DNA of 64,000 nucleotides, taken from Escherichia phage ph0011. The stretch's first letter is position 1; each line of letters starts with the position of its first letter. The notes beneath the pieces are model-generated. The model did no database searches and was not told the DNA's origin. It saw nothing but the letters and a program-made list of their open reading frames with translations. The stretch lies in sequence record OP557969.1, one strand, 5' to 3'. Made by a program: the position numbers and the translations under genes. This document shows, piece after piece, positions 3,434 to 17,522 of the stretch.

Positions 3434-3654
3434 AAAAAATTGAACGCTACAAAAACCATACAGTTGTGACTGAAGATGATATATTTTATTATTATATTTT
3501 CAGACCCACACACTGTTTACAAATAACGACATTTGAGAATGATAATTTCAAAGATGTCAACTTCCATATAACAGATTTAGCTAAATATTCCAGAACTGAA
3601 CACTTTAGTAATCTAGTATTTGTGTACTGTATTCCAAACTCAAATAATAAGTAG
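3430..3654 (+). CDS. hypothetical protein (start moved to ATG overlapping upstream stop)
   Basis: ATGA overlap at 3430-3433; in frame with ORF-track ORF 3382..3654. Confidence 0.4.
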   Translation: MKKIERYKNHTVVTEDDIFYYYIFRPTHCLQITTFENDNFKDVNFHITDLAKYSRTEHFSNLVFVYCIPNSNNK

Positions 3655-3663
3655 GAGATCAAA

Positions 3664-4023
3664 ATGGCTAAAACAATTTCTTTAAAAAATGAAAAGGTAG
3701 GACAACGAAAAGATGGTTTCTATGGTTTTTCTTGGACTACATTATTTTTTGGACCTTTCCCTGCATTGTTTCGTGGTGACTTTATTACGTTCATCGGTGC
3801 ATTTGTAATTTACTTCATCCTCAACGCAGTGTCTTTTTGGATTGTGGGTACAATTGCAATGGTCGTGTGGGCGTTTATTTACAATAAGTACTACACGGTG
3901 AATCTCATCAAGAATGGGTATAAATTCAATGGTACACATGAAGAAAATGCTGAAGCTGCAATGGCTTTGCAAATTGATTTGAATAAAAACAACACAGTTG
4001 ATAAAAATAAAGATCCTGAGTAA
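3664..4023 (+). CDS. predicted integral membrane protein
   Basis: two long hydrophobic stretches (FFGPFPALF..., FVIYFILNAVSFWIVGTIAMVVWAFIY); SD-like AGGAGA upstream. Confidence 0.5.
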   Translation: MAKTISLKNEKVGQRKDGFYGFSWTTLFFGPFPALFRGDFITFIGAFVIYFILNAVSFWIVGTIAMVVWAFIYNKYYTVNLIKNGYKFNGTHEENAEAAMALQIDLNKNNTVDKNKDPE

Positions 4024-4242
4024 ATGGAAAAATATGATATAATTTACGATTATTACGGTAAGGCTTATATGAAGTGTGGACGTTATGTTGAACTCTCTAA
4101 TAGAGAATCAATAGATCCCCACACTCTTATAACAATTCATAACTCGTACTATAAAAAAGTTACAATAGCTAATTTCGCTACCTACGTAAATAATCCGTTA
4201 TTTCCTTACATTATTCAGTACTACTGTCGAGTTATAAAATAA
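4024..4242 (+). CDS. hypothetical protein
   Basis: ORF track; immediately follows upstream stop. Confidence 0.4.
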   Translation: MEKYDIIYDYYGKAYMKCGRYVELSNRESIDPHTLITIHNSYYKKVTIANFATYVNNPLFPYIIQYYCRVIK

Positions 4243-4253
4243 GGTAAAAAGAC

Positions 4254-4664
4254 ATGTTAGCCGATGATTTTATGTCTCTAAGTACCAAAATATTTGATAT
4301 ATTAGGGGATGAAATAGATTTTCATCTAAATGATACAACTATACCATTCGAAGATGGTGGTTATTTTTTCGCAATTGGTTATAAGTACAATGTTGATTTT
4401 TCAATTCCGGTTCCTGATGGAAGTGATTATGCAGAATCAACATATTTTGAATTTCAGTTCAGTGGGCATACTGAGCGTTTACTAACATATAGACGTAAAG
4501 GAAATTTCAGTAGGCCAGAGATCATATTAATGGATTTTGAAAAACGCATAGAACTTGCAAAGAATAATCCATTTATTAGTACTTACGCGTTAAACCAACT
4601 TATTGAACTATTTGATGGCTATCCAGACAGAATACGAGGGTCGTTACGTATAAATGCAGAATGA
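4254..4664 (+). CDS. hypothetical protein
   Basis: ORF track; ATG start. Confidence 0.45.
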   Translation: MLADDFMSLSTKIFDILGDEIDFHLNDTTIPFEDGGYFFAIGYKYNVDFSIPVPDGSDYAESTYFEFQFSGHTERLLTYRRKGNFSRPEIILMDFEKRIELAKNNPFISTYALNQLIELFDGYPDRIRGSLRINAE

Positions 4665-4839
4665 AATCTTTAAAAAAGAATACGATGGTGAAAGCCTTTA
4701 TGATATTCAGAGAGATGTTCATGAAGCCTTTGATTCAAAATTTAACCCATTAGCTGAACAAATCCCACAAGATGAATTTGGTTTTCAGGAAGGCACTTTC
4801 ACAGTGACTATTACATGGAGTCCAGATGAGACTAGCTAA
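4654..4839 (+). CDS. hypothetical protein
   Basis: ORF track; start overlaps upstream gene end. Confidence 0.35.
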   Translation: MQNEIFKKEYDGESLYDIQRDVHEAFDSKFNPLAEQIPQDEFGFQEGTFTVTITWSPDETS

Positions 4840-4944
4840 ACTTGTCATAGGGTGTAGTGCAATTGCTGCATATATGATTTTTTCACCTCCAACCAATGTA
4901 TTACTGCTAATTTGGGCGGTTGTTATATTAGCAGTACTTTAAAG

Positions 4945-4975
4945 CACCCCATAGTGGGTGTTTTTCTTTTTTTGT
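4945..4975 (+). terminator. putative intrinsic terminator
   Basis: short GC stem (gcaccc/gggtg) followed by long T-run tttttcttttttt. Confidence 0.45.
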
Positions 4976-5106
4976 ACAAATAAAAAGCAATGTCTCAATT
5001 CCTTGATATAGGTCAAGAGAAATAACCAGCTATTACGCTATAATGCTTTCTGTTGTTGTTAAATAACTTCACCCCCAGATGATTTCAAAAATACAAGGAG
5101 TGTACT

Positions 5107-6912
5107 GTGCAATTGAATAAATTATACACGGACGTAACGAATTTTCTAAACCAGAGTAATACTGATCTTACAAATGAAAACGCAAATAAAGATGCCAAAT
5201 GTGTAAATACACACAGAGATTTACTTGCTGGTATCTTATCTAAACATTATTCACAAGATGTTATTCCAAAGGATCTAATGCAGTGGCACAATGATGGATA
5301 TGGTCACATTCATGATTTGGACTACTATATTAGTCCATTAACAAACTGTTGTTTGGTTAATTATCCAGATATGCTTAAACATGGGTTTACTATCGGGTGT
5401 GCTAAAATCGAAGAACCAAAGAGTTTTAGTGTAGCATGTACGGTGCTAACACAGATTGTACAAGCTGTTGCAAGTTCCCAATATGGTGGTCAATCGTTGG
5501 CTCACATTGATGTCGGATTGGAACCTTATGTACAAAAGTCTTGGGAAAAGTTATTAGAAAAACAAAAGAAATATAATCTAAGCGATGATTTTATTGAAGA
5601 AGAATTACGAAAAGAAGTATATGATGGGTGTCAAACATTACTATATCAGACCAATTCAATGATTAGCACTAATGGACAAGCTGCATTCATTTCTCTTAGT
5701 TTAGGACTTAATACTTCCAAATTTGGAAAATTAATCACTGAACAGTACTTGAAAGTTCACGAGAATGGTTTAGGTAAAGATAAGATTACACCAGTGTTTC
5801 CTAAAGTTATTTTCTTTCTACAAGATGGTATTAACATGAATGTCAATGATAGTAATTATGATCTTAAACAGTTAGCTATGCGTTGTGCATCAAAAAGAAT
5901 CTATCCAGATTTTGTTTCAGTACCATTAAATCATAAAGTGACGGGAAGTAGTAGCACTGCGGTAACACCGATGGGCTGTCGTTCATTCTTAGGAAAATGG
6001 GAAGATTCAAATGGAAATGAACAATACAACGGTCGCTTCAATTTAGGTGTAGTTTCTATCAATTTACCACTAATTGCTCTTGAAAGTGCCTCAGATGGAG
6101 AGTTTTTTGATAAAATAGACGAGCATATGAATATTGCATATCGTGCTCAGATGAACCGCGTAGAGCGTTTAAAAGGTACAAAAGCGAAACAGAATCCAAT
6201 TTTGTTTATGGAAGGTGCATTAACACGTTTAAGTGCAGAAGAAACTATTGACAAGCTATTTTACAATGGTTATGCTAGTATTAGTATTGGTTATGTTGGA
6301 CTTGTTGAATGTTCGGAAATCCTCACTGGTTCTATCAGTAAGGAGTTTTGTATGTCAGTACTGAATTATATGAAAGTAAAATGCGATGAGTTCAAAAAAG
6401 AAAGTAATATTGCTTTTAGTCTATATGGAACTCCAGCAGAGTCGCTTTGTTATAAATTTGCACGTTGCATTGAAGCAAAATATCCTTCAGTTCTCAAACG
6501 AGATTTCATTACAAATTCATTCCATCAACCAGTATGGGTTGAAAGTTCCGCTTTTGAAAAGTGGGATTATGAGGAAAACTTTGCGTATCTAAGCAATGGT
6601 GGGAATATTAGCTATGTTGAAACACCAAACCTGGCTAATAATATACAAGCACTTGAAACATTGATCAATTATGCATATGATAAAATTCCATATTTTGGAA
6701 TTAATCAGAAAGTAGATAAGTGTTTTGAATGTAATTTTGAGGGAGAATTTAGTGTAGATAAAAATGGTTTTCATTGCCCTGTATGTAATAACAGAAATGA
6801 GCGAACAATGTCTGTTATACGTAGGGTATCTGGATATCTTAGTGCACCAAATAGTCGCCCGTTTAATAAAGGTAAACAAGCTGAAGTAATTCAGCGTATA
6901 CAGCATATGTAA
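5107..6912 (+). CDS. nrdD: anaerobic ribonucleoside-triphosphate reductase (class III RNR), GTG start
   Basis: N-terminus and C-terminal Cys-pair zinc ribbon plus glycyl-radical motif [12 protein letters not shown] match NrdD family as recalled from T4 NrdD; AAGGAG 7 nt upstream of GTG. Confidence 0.93.
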
Positions 6913-6923
6913 GGAGATATATT

Positions 6924-7286
6924 ATGTCAATTCAAGGTAAACAAGTAATGTCAGGTGAGCACATCGGAACCATCATGCTGGTGGATAATGATATTGCACG
7001 TATTATTGTATCTAAAACATTTTCAGAAAATGATGAAGTACTTTTGAGTACTTTTGACGGCGAAGAACTTCGTGACGTTCAGGTTAAACATGAACCTGGT
7101 ATTGAAGGTGGTCAGCATTTGAATGTAAATGTTCTATCTAAAGAACAACTCATTGATGCACAAAATAACCCTGAAAAGTATCCACAGCTTACTATTCGTG
7201 TTAGTGGTTATGCAGTACGTTTCAATTCACTAACAAAAGAACAACAAGATGATGTAATTTCTCGTACATTCACAAAAGAACTATGA
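6924..7286 (+). CDS. grcA: autonomous glycyl radical cofactor (GrcA/YfiD-like spare-part protein)
   Basis: C-terminal [10 protein letters not shown] ... [35 protein letters not shown] is near-identical in pattern to E. coli GrcA/PflB C-terminus; AAGGAGA SD. Confidence 0.85.
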
Positions 7287-7612
7287 TGGATTTAAAACCA
7301 ATTGTAGTGAACAAATACAAAGAACCGTATGATGTGTACATTGGTCGTGGGTCTAAATGGGGTAACCCATTTACCCATATCAATGATAAACAGACAAAAG
7401 CCGAATTCATTGTTGCTACAAGGGAAGAATCAATTGAAAAATTCCGAGAATACATTATTGACCGTATTTCTAATGGCGAAATTAAAATTGATGATTTACT
7501 TGAATTAGCAGGTAAACGTCTTGGATGTTTCTGCAAACCAAAATCATGTCACGGCGATGTTCTTGTTGAAATAGTGAGTGCAATATTAGATGAATTACCA
7601 GACGATAATTAA
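7283..7612 (+). CDS. DUF4326-like protein
   Basis: [12 protein letters not shown] ... [13 protein letters not shown] motif set; ATGA overlap with grcA. Confidence 0.6.
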
Positions 7613-8069
7613 AGATGACCTTATTAATGGTGAGGGGGTGAGGTGCTCCCTTTTTGTTAGTGGGTGTAGCCATTGTTGTGCCAAATGCTTCAACGAAAAG
7701 GCATGGGATTATAGAAGTGGCCAAGAGTTCAGTACTGAAACAATTGATATAATTTTAGCTGAACTCAGTAAACCGTACATTAGTGGGTTATCACTACTTG
7801 GTGGAGATCCACTAATGAAAAAGAACATCGAAACAATTTTAGAACTATGTAAAATTGTAAAAGATACTTATCCAAATAAAACTATTTGGTGCTGGAGTGG
7901 GTATACTTTAGAAGAGATTATGGATAATCATGCATCTCCAATACTGGAGTACATAGATGTATTGGTTGATGGTAAATTCATAGAAGCAGAAAAGAATTTA
8001 GAATTACCATTTAGAGGCTCTAATAATCAACGTATTCTTCGCAAAGGCGTAGATTATGCATTATCTTGA
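7590..8069 (+). CDS. nrdG: anaerobic ribonucleotide reductase activating protein (radical SAM)
   Basis: N-terminal Cys cluster GCSHCCAKCFN typical of NrdG-type activases; position adjacent to nrdD. Confidence 0.85.
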   Translation: MNYQTIIKDDLINGEGVRCSLFVSGCSHCCAKCFNEKAWDYRSGQEFSTETIDIILAELSKPYISGLSLLGGDPLMKKNIETILELCKIVKDTYPNKTIWCWSGYTLEEIMDNHASPILEYIDVLVDGKFIEAEKNLELPFRGSNNQRILRKGVDYALS

Positions 8070-8167: not shown

Positions 8168-10867
8168 ATGGCAAATAAAATATATGGTGGTATTGATGTT
8201 ACACACAATGTCACAGTAAAAGGTAAGAGAAGTGCTCAGAGCATCAATGATGACGTATTTGATGAAAACGGCAATCTCACAATAGATGCATATACACAAA
8301 ATGATATGTTAGAAATGGTTGGTATGTTACCAATTTCTCGTTATGGTACACAAAACTATCTACCTGCTGGGGTTAATGGTACAACAGTTGGTTCTTCAGA
8401 AAATATTAATTCCAGAAATACAAAATTATTTTTGGAAGATGATAACACTTTAGTAATGTTACGTCCAGGTACTAATGGTAGTACTCAAGGTGTTTATTAT
8501 AGTTATATGACCCAAGCAGTAGGTACAACAAATACAAGTCGTATGGTTAATACTACTCGTGCATATAAACCCAATTACTTTGGTGCAGCATACGCAGTTT
8601 ATTTGTACCCAAGTAGTAATGATATTACTTGCGGTTTAGTGAGAATGGAGAATACCGATGGTACATATGTTGATAAAGTTTTTGTGTCAGATAATAATGG
8701 TACATTGAATGATGCAATGCACACTGGTATTATTCTATCAGATCATACAGCAGTACAACCTTTTGGTGCAATACAATTTGTTATTCGTGCAGAAGATGGT
8801 GCATTATATTTTTTTAGTTTAGACACACCAAATAATACTCTTAAAATATCCGTTACTAAAGTTACTTTTAGTCCAAGTAATAACCCAGGTGGTGGTACTT
8901 ATAGTATTACTAGAATTACTGGTTGGACTACAAGAACTTTTTATAATGCAATGATAGCTGATGAGAACATTGTTCCTACGATGAAAATAAATTCAACAAA
9001 TACCAATGATACTCCATACGTTTTAATTCCAAGCGGTATTATTGGGTTTGGTGTTTATATGACAGATCCAGATTTATATGTTGCACAGAGATCAGGTACA
9101 TCTACATTCAAATTTAGATTATGTGGTGATATGTGGATGAGTAATGGTAGATATGACATACGACCACAACATAGTTTTAGTATGACTTTTGATGTTGCAA
9201 CGAAGCAATGTGCACTCGATAATATGACAACGACTACACCAGTTGCTGTTTATGACAATGGTTCTAGCATGAATGCAACTGGACCTTGCTTGACAACTGA
9301 CCCATTTTATCTTCATGCAGGTGCACGTAATATTTTCAGTAATTATTGCTATATTCCATCAACAGGGGATGCGTTTTGTTCATTTTCACCAAACCTAGCA
9401 GAACCATTGAATTTATCATATGCAAAATACCCACCAAAATCTTTATTTGATTTGATGGATGTTAGAAGTGTGTCAGCAACTAATTTTATTAATGGTGTAG
9501 TAACACCAAGATTTGGTTCAGCAGTTGGGTCATACCAAGTAGGTGTAGAGTTATTACCAAATAACAGTACTAAACAATATTCAAGACGTTCTGGTGATGG
9601 TCGTTTTTTTCCATCCTATGCTGTTCATAAATCTACACCAAACTTTACATTCAAGTCGTTGAATTATGGTACAGTACCTGGTTATGAACCAACACCTGAC
9701 AGAAATTTCATAACCACACCAGAATCACGCATTTTTATAAGTTCAATATCTGGTTCAAACGTCACTACTAATGGTGGTGTTTTGGTTGCTGACATTAGAA
9801 CATCAACACCAATTAGTTTTGATTATAAAGGTAATGTACTGAATAATGGTACAATCAGTATGTCTCAAGATATAATGAATGCTATTAGGAATTCAGAATT
9901 TGCTAAAGTTGCTGGTTCTTGGGATATATCCCCAGCATCAGTAAAAACATTATCAGTTTTCGTTCCACAACAAACTGATATTCCTGTTTTCGCGGTTCTT
10001 GCTGCAACAACTAATTCCAGAGGACTATATATTCGTATGATTGAATTAGGTGTTAATACAAGAACAGGAGATATTACAACGTGGGCATTTAAACGTTTAG
10101 TACATGAAAGTGTTCAAGCTCTGGATTACAAAACTGATGCCGGATATTATCTTGATAGTGGAAGTATTGGTATTACTATATATGATGCTGGTTCTTTTTA
10201 CTTCATTGGTGGTGGTATTCCAGGTTTCTTTCCTACAGTTGGTAATACAGCTTCACCTTTTTTTCGTGCTACTGTAGATAAAGCAAGTAAGCAATTTAAT
10301 AATTTCCATATAGCTGGTAATCGACCTATCTATGCATTAGACGGTCAACCATTTGCTTTACCTGGTATTGGATTTGGTATTCTTCAAAGTATAGATCTTC
10401 AAAACAAAACTATTTTTAGAAAGTATGGAACTACATTAGAAGATTATAATGCATGGACTGATAAAGGAGATCCATTCATTTGCGTTGTTTCACAAGACGT
10501 TGCTCAAGGTTTTATTATATACTTCACTGAAGAGACACCAGTACTGATATCAGGTAAGCACTATACATTACCAATATCAAATATTGATTTAACAAAAGTG
10601 AAAGCAAATCCTGCGAATACTACATTTTATGTGTATATTAAATTAGTGCAGGGTATTGCAAAGTATCATATATCAACAACTGAATTAGCTGAAACTCAGT
10701 CAATATTCTGGATTGGTACAGTGAAAACTAATGATTTACAAATAACCGAAATTAATATCGTTAAACGTTCTCGTTTAGATCTGTTTGGTGCATCCTATGA
10801 CGCTGCCGGAAGTTCATTCCCAGTTAGTTCTGGTTTCCCTTCAGGTTCTGGTAATGTGAATTGGTAA
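8168..10867 (+). CDS. large putative tail fibre / receptor-binding structural protein (paralogue A)
   Basis: 899 aa, S/T/G/N-rich; late promoter upstream; N-terminal LPISRYG motif and conserved ~90-aa C-terminal module shared with 10878 and 11479 ORFs. Confidence 0.5.
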   Translation: MANKIYGGIDVTHNVTVKGKRSAQSINDDVFDENGNLTIDAYTQNDMLEMVGMLPISRYGTQNYLPAGVNGTTVGSSENINSRNTKLFLEDDNTLVMLRPGTNGSTQGVYYSYMTQAVGTTNTSRMVNTTRAYKPNYFGAAYAVYLYPSSNDITCGLVRMENTDGTYVDKVFVSDNNGTLNDAMHTGIILSDHTAVQPFGAIQFVIRAEDGALYFFSLDTPNNTLKISVTKVTFSPSNNPGGGTYSITRITGWTTRTFYNAMIADENIVPTMKINSTNTNDTPYVLIPSGIIGFGVYMTDPDLYVAQRSGTSTFKFRLCGDMWMSNGRYDIRPQHSFSMTFDVATKQCALDNMTTTTPVAVYDNGSSMNATGPCLTTDPFYLHAGARNIFSNYCYIPSTGDAFCSFSPNLAEPLNLSYAKYPPKSLFDLMDVRSVSATNFINGVVTPRFGSAVGSYQVGVELLPNNSTKQYSRRSGDGRFFPSYAVHKSTPNFTFKSLNYGTVPGYEPTPDRNFITTPESRIFISSISGSNVTTNGGVLVADIRTSTPISFDYKGNVLNNGTISMSQDIMNAIRNSEFAKVAGSWDISPASVKTLSVFVPQQTDIPVFAVLAATTNSRGLYIRMIELGVNTRTGDITTWAFKRLVHESVQALDYKTDAGYYLDSGSIGITIYDAGSFYFIGGGIPGFFPTVGNTASPFFRATVDKASKQFNNFHIAGNRPIYALDGQPFALPGIGFGILQSIDLQNKTIFRKYGTTLEDYNAWTDKGDPFICVVSQDVAQGFIIYFTEETPVLISGKHYTLPISNIDLTKVKANPANTTFYVYIKLVQGIAKYHISTTELAETQSIFWIGTVKTNDLQITEINIVKRSRLDLFGASYDAAGSSFPVSSGFPSGSGNVNW

Positions 10868-11478: not shown

Positions 11479-14220
11479 ATGGCTTCTAGACGAATTATAG
11501 GAAACGCAGATATACTAGGGAATTTAAAAATTAATGGAAAGTATGCATTACGTTCCCTTAATGGTGTTCCTGCTGACTCTGCTGGTAAAATCACTTATCA
11601 ATATTATGACAAAGCGGAAGTAAATCAGATATTTGATATGCTTCCAGTTTCAAGGGTAGGTGATCAAGATTACCTACCAATGAGTATTAACGGTACTTTT
11701 GAAGGTGCTTCTTCCTTTTCATTTGCAAAAATAATGCAACCTTGTATCATTGAAAATGATGGAACTGGTGTAATTTTACGTGCAGGTACAAATGGAAGTT
11801 CTTATGGTTACTATTATACTTATATTAAAAATATAAGAGATATAGAAACACTAACTCAAGATAATATAATTACAACCAATACGATGTATAGACCGTCTGT
11901 GCTACCAAGTACTGATTACATTTATGAATTTTATGGGTCAAATGCATATGAATTACTATTTTGGGAATCAACTGATAGAACATCATATTACCTTACATTA
12001 ACAAATGAAACATTGAATGAATCAGCACACAAGCATTGCAGAATTCCAAAAACAGCAATAACAAATAAACCAATATATGCACACATCGTAAATGATTCAG
12101 TTTATATATGGTGTATGGATTCAAGTGTATTTAGTAGTGTTCGCGGGTGTGCATTTATTATATACACAGTACCTTTAACTGCATTTAATACTGGTTCAGT
12201 TTCTACCGTAACACAGATTGGTGGTTATTCAGGAAGAACTATAAGAGATGCAACATATACTGCATCTAATAATATTCGCGTTTATGATAGCTATTCTATT
12301 TTAGGTTCAGGTGGTGATGCACTAATAGTATATGATAATGGTATTTCCAGAATAGATTATTGGGAAAATAACGTATTTAATACCCAAGCAGTTCTTAGCC
12401 CAGATGGTACAAAAATAAGAGTTGCGATCTATCCAGGATTCCGTGTTTTCACTGAAACAAAAACATCTAGTGTATATGCACTTGGTATTAGCTTTACATA
12501 TGATATCAGTACTAAAACAATGACACTTGACGGTTCTGAACGTGGTCCAATCAGAGTATCAGCTAATACATCAACTGGTAGTATAACAGTAAGAAACCCG
12601 TTTTCAATCAATATGGAAAACTTTACAGGGTTTTATGACGGTGCACTTGGCAACTATGGTTCAATCTGTCAAACTTCTGATGGTTTTGTTTTCACCACCA
12701 AAGCAAGATGGACATCCACACCAACATATGCAGTACAAACATACAAAGTTTCTGGTACACCTTATGATAGTTGGGTCGCTAAAACACGTACTGCTAGTAA
12801 TTTAAAACGTGTCGAAGTAATGCCAGTTTATGGTTCCCCTGTCGGTGAAAACTTAATAGGTGTTCGTTTCGTAGATAAACGTAAGATACTTGTTGCATGT
12901 TCTGGCACTGCTGATGGAATTTCTTATGGTTATGATAGTACAGTTTTTACTGAAATAGGTGAGAATCCGACTTATGTTTATAAAAACTTGGAACAAAATA
13001 CCACAATGAATGGTTTTGCACCATCAAGTAATAGACACTATTTAAGTACTGATTACAAATATGCAGGTATGATAACATTGGTTGATGCAAATGGAAATGT
13101 CAGCACTTATGGTTCTTCGTTAATAGAAGACATCGATAAACCAGCGTATGGAAAATTCGACCCAGTTACAATGGACTTCGACAGTAATAGATATGAAATT
13201 TCAGGAACAACATTATCAAGTATAGGTGATAATGCAATCGCTAAAGCTGGATTGTCTGGAATAACTGATCATAAAACTGTTTTTTATTATGTACCTGATA
13301 CTACATATTCTAAATCGATTGCAGTCACTTCTGCATTAAACGGTACTACCAATGTGTGTTATATTATTTTTTCCGAAATATCATGTAGTGCAGTTGGTAC
13401 AAGTGGTACTATAATTTTACGTGATATTAATGTTGATACAGCAAGATATACATCAATGACGAATACATTCCAAATTTCACCAAATGAAATGGTCAAACGT
13501 TGGGCTGGTATGACGGTTTCTAAGTTTAGTGGTTTTAACTACTTAGGTGTGAACATTTTATATGGCATTGATACCCCAGGTTGGACTCGTTATCCTAACA
13601 TGATTGCTAAAGTGAAAAATGGTATTATTTCAAGTCAACGATATATGGAAACAACTTATATTTCAAACGCACAATTTGATATAGGTACAATTCCAGGGAT
13701 TGGGTTTGGATATTACCAAATGAACAAAAACGATTATCAAACTAAATCAGTTTTTGCTGTATGTGGTACTACTGAAGCAGATATGGATAAACTAATATCT
13801 GGTAATGAAACGATATCACAGTACTTAGTTATTGCTTCACAGGACGTGGCACAAGGGTTTCATGTATACTTTTCACAAGAAGTACCAGTTTTCTTGGGTG
13901 GAAAGTTTGCAAAGATACCACCGACTATGATAGACTTATCTACTATAAGTACTACACCAGAGAATTCAACATTCTACATATATGCGGTGATGGATAGAGA
14001 TACATCCACAGCATCGTATCAGATATCACTACATCAATTATCAGAAACTATGACATCAACATACATTGGTAAGATAGTAACTAATAATAATGGTATTGCA
14101 TCAATCGAGTCTGAAAAAGTTTCCAGATTCTTGCTATACCGTCCAAGTACCTACAATCGTGGTTCTGCGATCCCAGCAAGTTCTGGTGTTCCGTCAGGAA
14201 CAGGTACACGTTGGAATTAA
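11479..14220 (+). CDS. large putative tail fibre / receptor-binding structural protein (paralogue B)
   Basis: 913 aa; N-terminal MLPVSRVGDQDYLP and C-terminal GSAIPASSGVPSG module shared with 8168 ORF. Confidence 0.5.
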   Translation: MASRRIIGNADILGNLKINGKYALRSLNGVPADSAGKITYQYYDKAEVNQIFDMLPVSRVGDQDYLPMSINGTFEGASSFSFAKIMQPCIIENDGTGVILRAGTNGSSYGYYYTYIKNIRDIETLTQDNIITTNTMYRPSVLPSTDYIYEFYGSNAYELLFWESTDRTSYYLTLTNETLNESAHKHCRIPKTAITNKPIYAHIVNDSVYIWCMDSSVFSSVRGCAFIIYTVPLTAFNTGSVSTVTQIGGYSGRTIRDATYTASNNIRVYDSYSILGSGGDALIVYDNGISRIDYWENNVFNTQAVLSPDGTKIRVAIYPGFRVFTETKTSSVYALGISFTYDISTKTMTLDGSERGPIRVSANTSTGSITVRNPFSINMENFTGFYDGALGNYGSICQTSDGFVFTTKARWTSTPTYAVQTYKVSGTPYDSWVAKTRTASNLKRVEVMPVYGSPVGENLIGVRFVDKRKILVACSGTADGISYGYDSTVFTEIGENPTYVYKNLEQNTTMNGFAPSSNRHYLSTDYKYAGMITLVDANGNVSTYGSSLIEDIDKPAYGKFDPVTMDFDSNRYEISGTTLSSIGDNAIAKAGLSGITDHKTVFYYVPDTTYSKSIAVTSALNGTTNVCYIIFSEISCSAVGTSGTIILRDINVDTARYTSMTNTFQISPNEMVKRWAGMTVSKFSGFNYLGVNILYGIDTPGWTRYPNMIAKVKNGIISSQRYMETTYISNAQFDIGTIPGIGFGYYQMNKNDYQTKSVFAVCGTTEADMDKLISGNETISQYLVIASQDVAQGFHVYFSQEVPVFLGGKFAKIPPTMIDLSTISTTPENSTFYIYAVMDRDTSTASYQISLHQLSETMTSTYIGKIVTNNNGIASIESEKVSRFLLYRPSTYNRGSAIPASSGVPSGTGTRWN

Positions 14221-15891: not shown

Positions 15892-16293
15892 ATGACTACA
15901 GTTGATGATATCTATAGTACTATACGCAATATGAGCACAGATAGAAAAGTATTTGGTGATAAAGAAAAATCTAAGTGTTATGGTATTGATTCTTTTGATA
16001 TAATTTCGTATGAGTACAATACGAATGGAAATAGTTCACTGAATATTGTCTGCCCTCGTGACCCAGAAAATAATTTTATGTATGTTGAAATTAATAATGA
16101 TGGAATGTTTTTTACAAAAGTTTTTAAAGGTGGAATTAATTACGAAACAATTGAATGTATGAATGAAGAAACTTTCTTTCAAGAAGATACAATTATCAAT
16201 TTAGGTTTTAGTTTTGATGATTATAAAACATTAGAACATGACTTTAATCGTTATTATAACGGTTTCTTAAAGGAGTTAACAATTTATCTATGA
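15892..16293 (+). CDS. hypothetical protein
   Basis: ORF track; tight spacing. Confidence 0.45.
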   Translation: MTTVDDIYSTIRNMSTDRKVFGDKEKSKCYGIDSFDIISYEYNTNGNSSLNIVCPRDPENNFMYVEINNDGMFFTKVFKGGINYETIECMNEETFFQEDTIINLGFSFDDYKTLEHDFNRYYNGFLKELTIYL

Positions 16294-17522
16294 ATAACCA
16301 ATATGTTGAACAAACAATAGTGAAACACTTGGCTGGGTCACAAGCCTACGGAACCAGTACACCTGAAAGTGATACTGATTATCGTGGTATTTTTCTTGCT
16401 AATAAAGAATTTATTCTTACGCCATTCTATAAGGTTAAAGAAGTAGCTGATAAAAATGAAGAAGATACCAAATTCTATGAGTTAAATCAGTATTTAAAAT
16501 TATACACTGATGCTAACCCTAATATTCTGGAATCACTATGGGTTGAACCAGAACACATTGTAGAAAGTACTGAGATTTATGACTATCTTCGTTCATTTAA
16601 CCAAAAACTTCTTAGTTCCAAGATTGCATTTTCATACACTGGATATGCATATAATCAAATTAAACGTATGACAAATCACCACGGTTGGATGGATAAAGAG
16701 CGTATTGCTGAAAAACGTTTAAATGAGATTTTAGAAGAACACCCAGTCGATGAGGTTCTTGTGTGGATGTATGATTCATTCCCACAATATCTTGTTGACC
16801 GTTTAGATACATCCAAATTACATCCATTTAATGCTAAAAAGATTGATTTTGAAAAATACATGCGTGATACGTCATTGCAGTTAGTTTCGAAAAATCCATT
16901 AAAGCAATATCATTTTGTAAGATTAGTGCATAACTACACTACTGATAAAATTCTAGATCGTGATTTCAATTTATTGAATTTTAACAATGGGTATGAACTA
17001 ATTCATTACGGAGAAAACATTTTTGCGATTATTAAAAATCCAAATGAAAGTACAATCAACGGTGATGGTTCATTGCGACATTTTTCAAAAGAGCGTAGTA
17101 CTGAAGAGTTGAAAACCAAACCAGAACTAATTGTCAAATTTAACGAAAAAGAATATCAGGAAAATAGTGAGAATAGAAAAAGTTATCATAAATGGAAAGA
17201 AAATCGTAATGCCAAACGTGCTATTTTAGAATCACTACACGGCTATGATTGCAAAAGTGCAATGCATACCATTAGACTATTGAATAGTGCAGAAGATGCA
17301 TTACAAAGTGGGATTATTCAAGTTAAACGCCCAGATGCACAGATGTTGATGGATATTCGTAATGGTAAATGGAAGTATGAAGAAGTTTTAGAATATTTCG
17401 ATGATAAAGTAAAATATATCCGTGATGTTCTATATAAGAAATCAGAACTTCCAAAAAAACCAGATATTAAATTAGCATCGAAAATTATCATTGATATCCG
17501 AGAGATGCAATGGTATAAGTAA
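16290..17522 (+). CDS. Pol-beta superfamily nucleotidyltransferase
   Basis: N-terminal hAGSQAYGTSTPESDTDYRGIF = G[SG]x9-13DhD nucleotidyltransferase signature; ATGA overlap. Confidence 0.6.
   Translation: MNNQYVEQTIVKHLAGSQAYGTSTPESDTDYRGIFLANKEFILTPFYKVKEVADKNEEDTKFYELNQYLKLYTDANPNILESLWVEPEHIVESTEIYDYLRSFNQKLLSSKIAFSYTGYAYNQIKRMTNHHGWMDKERIAEKRLNEILEEHPVDEVLVWMYDSFPQYLVDRLDTSKLHPFNAKKIDFEKYMRDTSLQLVSKNPLKQYHFVRLVHNYTTDKILDRDFNLLNFNNGYELIHYGENIFAIIKNPNESTINGDGSLRHFSKERSTEELKTKPELIVKFNEKEYQENSENRKSYHKWKENRNAKRAILESLHGYDCKSAMHTIRLLNSAEDALQSGIIQVKRPDAQMLMDIRNGKWKYEEVLEYFDDKVKYIRDVLYKKSELPKKPDIKLASKIIIDIREMQWYK

Follow-up and report, generated by a model that had tools for sequence, protein, structure and literature searches.

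A GrcA-like glycyl radical protein encoded in the nrdD-nrdG operon of an Escherichia phage

The 64,000-nucleotide stretch of Escherichia phage ph0011 DNA analyzed here (sequence record OP557969.1; hereafter the window) carries, at 6924..7286 on the plus strand, a grcA-like gene for an autonomous glycyl radical cofactor, or spare-part protein. The open reading frame is intact and encodes 120 amino acids, with the C-terminal sequence that had been quoted in an earlier, sequence-only reading of this DNA. Judged by the function of its homologues, this phage GrcA (YfiD/Y06I type) probably repairs oxygen-cleaved host pyruvate formate-lyase (PFL; PflB) by way of PflA. The evidence computed for the window gene itself consists of its sequence family membership, the predicted fold of its product, the identity of that product to the PFL type of radical domain, a conserved operon position, and purifying selection. 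By analogy, the window orthologue would act as its T4 and E. coli homologues do.

The 120-residue protein contains a single Pfam domain, Gly_radical, at residues 59-101 (E=1e-17). PHROG 1209 matches over the full length (residues 4-120, E=1.6e-50), and the best NCBIfam model is TIGR04365, spare_glycyl (residues 14-120, E=8e-38). The best match among solved structures is E. coli GrcA/YfiD (6owr; residues 12-120, E=3.8e-31), followed by the C-terminus of PflB (E=4.7e-30), with homology extending back to PflB residue 669. This family match is far beyond chance, and the GrcA-like glycyl radical protein that the sequence-only reading had placed at 6924-7286 is confirmed by it. The profile HMM comparison proposed in that reading gives Gly_radical 65 bits against a cutoff of 22.2, with the conserved glycine present, and TIGR04365 a score of 129.5 bits, which is below its trusted cutoff of 170 (discussed below). 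The radical glycine is Gly95 (codon 7206-7208) in the motif RVSGYAV, 25 residues from the C-terminus and at the same offset as PflB Gly734 and GrcA Gly102. The C-terminal glycyl radical domain (residues 59-120; 7098..7283, plus strand) comprises this loop and a GGQHLNVNV strand, a duplicated beta-strand.

By its sequence features, the radical module is of the PFL type rather than the NrdD type. In an ungapped 61-residue comparison anchored on the radical glycine, the window protein matches PflB at 49 positions, T4 vs.6 at 49, GrcA at 48, TdcE at 46, and the NrdD encoded by the same phage at 9. The number of residues following the radical glycine is 25 in all of the phage GrcA, PflB, GrcA, TdcE, and the phage's own NrdD. 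The radical domain is 80% identical to the C-terminus of E. coli PflB (residues ~700-759), and a 26-residue core is wholly identical. In an alignment of 11 sequences, phage and host homologues together, 38 columns do not vary among GrcA, PflB, and the phage homologues, and the window protein retains all 38, including the radical glycine; the GGQHLNVNV strand is constant in all 11. The window protein has no cysteines, whereas the last 75 residues of the window NrdD have four, which make up a Cys4 zinc ribbon just before the glycine loop.

The N-terminal half of the protein (residues 1-58; 6924..7097, plus strand) shows homology to the matching part of T4 vs.6 and, more weakly, of E. coli GrcA, with 22/52 identical residues to the vs.6 protein of phage RB14 and 18/56 (32%) to E. 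coli GrcA. By sequence comparison its homology to the corresponding region of YfiD and Y06I is clear, and functional equivalence is putative. The shortfall of the window protein against the TIGR04365 cutoff comes from this divergent half. The RB14 protein (155.7 bits) and the other phage homologues tested (105-140 bits) fail the same cutoff, and E. coli GrcA scores 233.9 bits. Because the cutoff is missed even by RB14 vs.6, a protein with 98% identity to T4 vs.6, we treated it as a curation threshold and not as a defining property; it evidently delimits bacterial GrcA from the phage versions and does not delimit function.

The AlphaFold (AF2) model of the 120-residue protein has a mean pLDDT of 80.6. 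In Foldseek searches the top matches to the C-terminal half of the model were the YfiD NMR structure and PFL crystal structures, and the fold predicted for this half can be superposed on the NMR model of YfiD. The N-terminal half is modeled as a compact five-strand beta domain, with a pLDDT of ~90 for residues 1-55. Its best structural matches are KOW/SH3-like barrels with E values of ~0.06-0.2, which are too weak for a fold to be named. YfiD's N-terminus was found to be disordered by NMR, and Andorfer et al. (2021) state that YfiD requires its first 60 residues both for binding to cleaved PFL and for installation of the radical (PMC8683613). By their account, YfiD is activated essentially only in the presence of cleaved PFL. 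The folded N-terminus of the model, as against the disordered one of YfiD, may represent a real difference in the phage clade or may be caused by over-confidence of the model. If the two N-termini do differ, binding to cleaved PFL could differ as well.

The activity of two members of this family has been described. According to the account in PMC8683613, Wagner et al. (2001, BBRC 285:456) reported that the PFL activase gives E. coli YfiD and T4 Y06I a glycyl radical and that both proteins return activity to oxygen-cleaved PFL. We have taken Y06I to be the product of T4 gene vs.6, since the T4 region that we retrieved has its GrcA annotation on vs.6, and a single matching place was listed for each T4-like record. 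The vs.6 protein (RefSeq NP_049730, "autonomous glycyl radical cofactor GrcA") also has 120 residues and aligns with the window protein over its whole length at 59% identity; the two share the RVSGYAV loop, the position of the glycine, and an N-terminal motif beginning with GTI. The T4 gene is located in the vs region between regB and denV, unlike the window gene with its place in the nrdD-nrdG operon. The window gene is about equally distant from PflB, GrcA, and vs.6. At the variable position of LT(K/P)EQQ its product has lysine, as does PflB, where GrcA and vs.6 have proline.

The RB14 vs.6 gene (3507-3869 of the RB14 locus) appears to be a mosaic. We compared it with E. coli grcA (821-1204 of its retrieved locus), and its last 61 codons have 95.6% DNA identity to the host gene. 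The 3' half has a host-like GC content of 49%, and the 5' half, at 33% GC, resembles the other phage copies. The sequences suggest a fairly recent recombination of the T4-type gene with host grcA. The window copy shows nothing of this kind.

Compared with E. coli GrcA (YfiD; InterPro IPR011140, TIGR04365), with which it shares 79% identity in the radical domain, the window protein is seven residues shorter and has a divergent N-terminal half; its gene, in addition, is part of a phage nrdD operon. The shorter GrcA2 and GrcA3 proteins (NF008341 and NF038360; ~80 residues) share the radical domain, and their models score 88.8 and 113 bits against the window protein, below the cutoffs of 145 and 158. 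They lack the N-terminal region of ~58 residues that the window protein shares with GrcA and vs.6. In comparison with PflB, the window protein has neither the catalytic barrel nor Cys418/Cys419. The pyruvate formate-lyase model TIGR01255 gives 92.6 bits against a cutoff of 994, and the match covers only model positions 673-744.

A 100% identical protein is already present in the NCBI database under the names "autonomous glycyl radical cofactor GrcA" and "pyruvate formate-lyase". The second of these names is a misnomer, given that a protein of 120 residues with no cysteine and without the ~760-residue barrel cannot be a formate acetyltransferase. Other public labels for the 120-residue protein include "2-ketobutyrate formate-lyase", "acetyltransferase", "ribonucleotide reductase subunit", and "hypothetical protein". 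All such labels except "hypothetical protein" are misleading for a protein that has the radical domain only.

The grcA-like gene is the second of four closely spaced genes on the plus strand, in the order nrdD (5107-6912), grcA (6924-7286), a gene for a DUF4326 protein (7283-7612), and nrdG (7590-8069). The grcA start codon lies 11 nucleotides past the nrdD stop, and a ribosome binding site, GGAGA (6913..6917, plus strand), can be read from the sequence 6 nucleotides 5' of the ATG; one is annotated at the equivalent spot in phages UE-S1 and Munch. The TGA of grcA overlaps the ATG of the DUF4326 gene (ATGA, 7283-7286), and the 3' end of the DUF4326 gene shares 23 nucleotides with the start of nrdG. 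The description of the gene as lying between nrdD and nrdG therefore holds insofar as nrdD is upstream and nrdG downstream, although the DUF4326 gene intervenes before nrdG. A terminator-like hairpin with a 9-bp stem followed by a T run (4941..4964, plus strand) is found upstream of nrdD and probably marks where the nrdD-grcA-DUF4326-nrdG transcription unit has its 5' boundary; UE-S1 and Munch have annotated terminators at the equivalent position. We found no terminator-like hairpin between the genes of the operon. A scan for sigma-70-like sites yielded 18, compared with 17.1 in shuffled sequence; as these sites were no more common than in the shuffled sequence, we do not claim a promoter.

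The nrdD gene (5107..6912, plus strand) encodes a T4-type class III (anaerobic) ribonucleotide reductase (Pfam NRDD, E=1.4e-164; NCBIfam NF006732, 769 bits). It is a full-length close relative of T4 NrdD (structure 1h78, E=1.1e-164) and has conserved the PMGCRSF finger loop. The N-terminal ATP-cone is absent, with the match to NF006732 beginning at model position 97 and the alignment with T4 NrdD at residue 6. The furthest-upstream start in the window and in phage A4 is the GTG at 5107, giving 601 residues; UE-S1 and PBECO4 are annotated with 621-622 residues from an upstream start. As the sequence-only reading had stated, this NrdD keeps its own glycyl loop, RRVSGYL, alongside its Cys4 zinc ribbon. 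The nrdG product (7590..8069, plus strand), the radical-SAM activase of NrdD, matches NCBIfam TIGR02491 with 195 bits (cutoff 126) and Pfam Fer4_12 with an E value of 2.6e-52. It is the sole PflA-like match in the window, where we found no phage-borne PflA, no PflB barrel, and no second GrcA.

The DUF4326 gene (7283..7612, plus strand; 109-residue product, Pfam DUF4326, E=3.2e-24) is translationally coupled between grcA and nrdG and is probably outside the radical system. PBECO4 and K64-1 have a DUF4326 gene at this spot as well, and in Munch and Yen9-04 other genes stand in its place. The domain was predicted by Iyer, Aravind and colleagues to be a rhodanese-phosphatase-like enzyme acting on ADP-ribose derivatives (PMC9503650, PMC7824862). 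The window's DUF4326 protein carries an 11-residue C-terminal motif. Farther along the plus strand, the window has a gene at 16290-17522 for a 410-residue protein with an RlaP domain (RNA-repair-pathway DNA polymerase beta family nucleotidyltransferase, E=2e-15). Directly downstream of nrdG, two large open reading frames (8168-10867 and 11479-14220, both on the plus strand; 899 and 913 residues) have no Pfam match; the Yen9-04 gene at the equivalent place downstream of nrdG carries a minor tail protein annotation.

A 3.2-kb region of the window has 82-90% DNA identity to the Asteriusvirus E. coli jumbo phages UE-S1, TH47, and A4 (~350 kb). The location of grcA downstream of nrdD and upstream of nrdG is common to four genera of Rak2-like jumbo phages, namely a subset of Asteriusvirus (the window, A4, UE-S1, and TH47), the Munch group, Alcyoneusvirus (K64-1 and RaK2), and Eneladusvirus (fHe-Yen9-04 and Serratia phage BF). 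The amino acid identities of GrcA, NrdD, and NrdG to their window counterparts are 77, 74, and 79% in Munch, 72, 73, and 76% in K64-1, and 67, 73, and 71% in Yen9-04. The GrcA identity tracks that of NrdD and NrdG, which fits a long vertical co-inheritance of the three genes.

The gene is not present in every close relative. PBECO4 is cleanly without the grcA open reading frame, and its nrdD stop is followed after 8 nucleotides by the start of the DUF4326 gene. Among the matches listed, 17 other relatives have two-piece coverage of 81-82% and are gapped in the same way as PBECO4. The absence in the PBECO4 sub-lineage is most simply explained as a deletion, and PBECO4 and the 17 gapped relatives show that the gene is dispensable. 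We considered whether the RVSGY loop of some NrdDs, which has serine in place of the usual cysteine before the glycine, is linked to the presence of grcA, and rejected this, since PBECO4 has RVSGY without grcA and an Aeromonas phage has RVCGY with it.

Other differences among the relatives are found around the gene. The spacer between nrdD and grcA is AT-rich and ~150-175 nucleotides long in UE-S1 (3913-4086) and TH47, and ~10 nucleotides long in the window (6913-6923), A4, Munch, and K64-1; the longer spacer could be a promoter or the remnant of an insertion. In TH47, nrdD is interrupted at the equivalent of window position 6048/6049 by a 1.17-kb insert (1549-2721) with a 279-residue open reading frame whose N-terminus is GIY-YIG-like. 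As in T4 nrdD, the insert may represent an intron that carries a homing endonuclease. TH47 has a second insert, of ~0.97 kb (4436-5409) with a 328-residue open reading frame, which separates the DUF4326 gene from nrdG. Both inserts are absent from the window.

The window gene is an old phage gene under purifying selection, as judged from its low dN/dS, its phage-like GC content, and its low third-position identity to host genes. Against its orthologues, the radical domain has a dN/dS of 0.06-0.14 and the N-terminal half one of 0.10-0.61, with synonymous sites near saturation. The GC content of the gene is 35.3% and that of the phage is 34.3%, and only 23-25 of 61 third codon positions are identical to those of host grcA and pflB. 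Recent capture from the host was rejected on the latter two grounds.

Oxygen cleaves active PflB at its radical glycine, Gly734. In the repair that we propose, host PflB cleaved by O2 at this residue would be bound by the N-terminal half of the phage protein, and the C-terminal domain, as a near copy of PflB residues 700-759, would slot into the vacated site. Host PflA would then install a new glycyl radical on Gly95, and PFL activity (the conversion of pyruvate to acetyl-CoA and formate) would resume without the 85-kDa subunit having to be remade. Since an infected cell is not reliable for remaking PflB or GrcA, a part made by the phage would be useful. The benefit would be a repair that is independent of host gene expression and that keeps fermentative acetyl-CoA/ATP and formate production going.

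PFL is the cell's source of formate, and we hypothesize that formate from the repaired enzyme could feed the T4-type NrdD. Formate is the reductant of most characterized class III ribonucleotide reductases (PMC4493059). A supply of formate to NrdD would explain the co-transcription of grcA with nrdD and nrdG as a module for dNTP supply under microaerobic or anaerobic conditions. We found no paper stating such a link between a phage GrcA and NrdD. The copies that are not linked to nrdD, in the vs region of the T4-likes and the tRNA region of the T5-likes, indicate that the usefulness of the gene does not depend on this rationale.

The adjacency to nrdD raises the alternative that the protein is a spare part for the phage NrdD, in which it would replace an oxygen-cleaved glycyl loop and NrdG would re-install the radical. 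In favor of this, nrdD directly precedes the gene, which shares an operon with nrdG, the linkage recurs in four jumbo phage genera and, with another gene order, in Aeromonas T4-likes, and both RVSGY and the 25 residues after the glycine are common to NrdD and the small protein; it is considered conceivable, though unproven, that glycyl radical enzymes other than PFL have spare parts (PMC8683613). This alternative is nonetheless very improbable and can be set aside on sequence grounds, given the match of 9/61 to the phage's own NrdD against 49/61 to host PflB and 46/61 to TdcE, and the lack of any counterpart to the Cys4 zinc ribbon of the NrdD radical domain. Furthermore, the NrdD of PBECO4 has the RVSGY loop in a phage with no grcA, the T4 and T5-like copies sit away from nrdD, and it is PFL on which the T4 homologue works, in the account given in PMC8683613. 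Of the two repair targets offered in the sequence-only reading, host PflB and the phage NrdD, the latter is thus not supported. A role other than repair is also very unlikely. The protein could be a decoy or inhibitor that titrates PflA or blocks PFL, redirecting the flux of pyruvate, or it could be the decaying remnant of a pflB 3' end. Free YfiD is a poor substrate of PflA, with a Km of about 100 uM (PMC8683613), so that binding without repair is conceivable; PBECO4 and the 17 other listed relatives do without the gene, and many records call the protein merely "pyruvate formate-lyase". A remnant or decoy would, however, not be expected from 38 of 38 invariant columns retained with the radical glycine among them, from strong purifying selection (the radical-domain dN/dS being that given above), or from an intact open reading frame with a ribosome binding site and translational coupling. 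The N-terminal region homologous to GrcA and vs.6 makes the protein more than a pflB fragment, and the T4 homologue restores PFL activity, again as recounted in PMC8683613.

A further alternative keeps host PFL as the target but has the radical installed by the phage NrdG, instead of or besides PflA, which would make the module independent of the host activase. The two genes are co-transcribed and have long been co-inherited, the RRVSGYL loop that is the substrate of NrdG shares RVSGY with the IRVSGYA of GrcA, and NrdG and PflA are homologous radical-SAM activases (PFLA models match NrdG weakly, and the two are 25% identical over 69 residues). We consider this unlikely, as the activase of the two characterized proteins, YfiD and Y06I, is PFL-AE, which E. 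coli contains constitutively, according to what PMC8683613 relates. In addition, NrdG is ~90 residues shorter than PflA, its recognition of NrdD may need the context of the zinc ribbon, which is absent from GrcA, and the T4 homologue is unlinked to nrdG. A broader proposal, which we regard as a little more doubtful still, is that grcA, nrdD, and nrdG of the Rak2-like jumbo phages form a self-contained anaerobic dNTP module, in which NrdG cross-activates the spare part and the repaired PFL gives NrdD its formate. If true, this would be the first time that an NrdG-type activase is seen to work on a domain of the PFL type, and that a virus repairs an enzyme of its host for the specific purpose of supplying its own reductase. 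Repair of host PflB with a radical installed by PflA is the reading that we prefer.

A tblastn search found homologues in 1584 of 50,697 phage records (~3%), including those of Tequatrovirus, T5-like phages, Klebsiella and Enterobacter T4-likes, Aeromonas phages, and Rak2-like jumbo phages, and many of these records are already labeled "autonomous glycyl radical cofactor". The function had been called unusual for a phage in the sequence-only reading, which is contradicted by these numbers and by the biochemistry of T4 Y06I from 2001. In IMG/VR, 80 loci were found, of which 70 are stand-alone copies and 10 are host pflB; nrdD and nrdG both occur within 6 kb of 6 of the 70. Apart from the arrangement in the window, the gene is found in the vs region in T4 and RB14, among tRNA genes in the T5-likes, and in the order nrdD-nrdG-grcA in Aeromonas T4-likes. 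For the comparison of the Aeromonas phage GrcA with Aeromonas PflB and GrcA, the contig scan gave one unrelated Allofournierella locus, and the protein search gave mostly short unnamed fragments with no Aeromonas entry. A literature search yielded no paper joining a jumbo phage with formate-lyase, which is not proof of absence.

A phage-encoded GrcA is thus already known and is common in phages, and this protein is already annotated. The gene carries little weight as a discovery, with the phage protein known since 2001, homologues in ~3% of sequenced phage genomes, and the exact protein deposited as GrcA. The new points are modest ones: the spot shared by four jumbo phage genera, the divergence in step with nrdD and nrdG, the clean absence from PBECO4, and the purifying selection. 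The near-isogenic phages with and without grcA, PBECO4 being the one without, constitute a natural experiment on what the repair of PFL is worth in the microaerobic gut and on the supply of formate to a class III ribonucleotide reductase.
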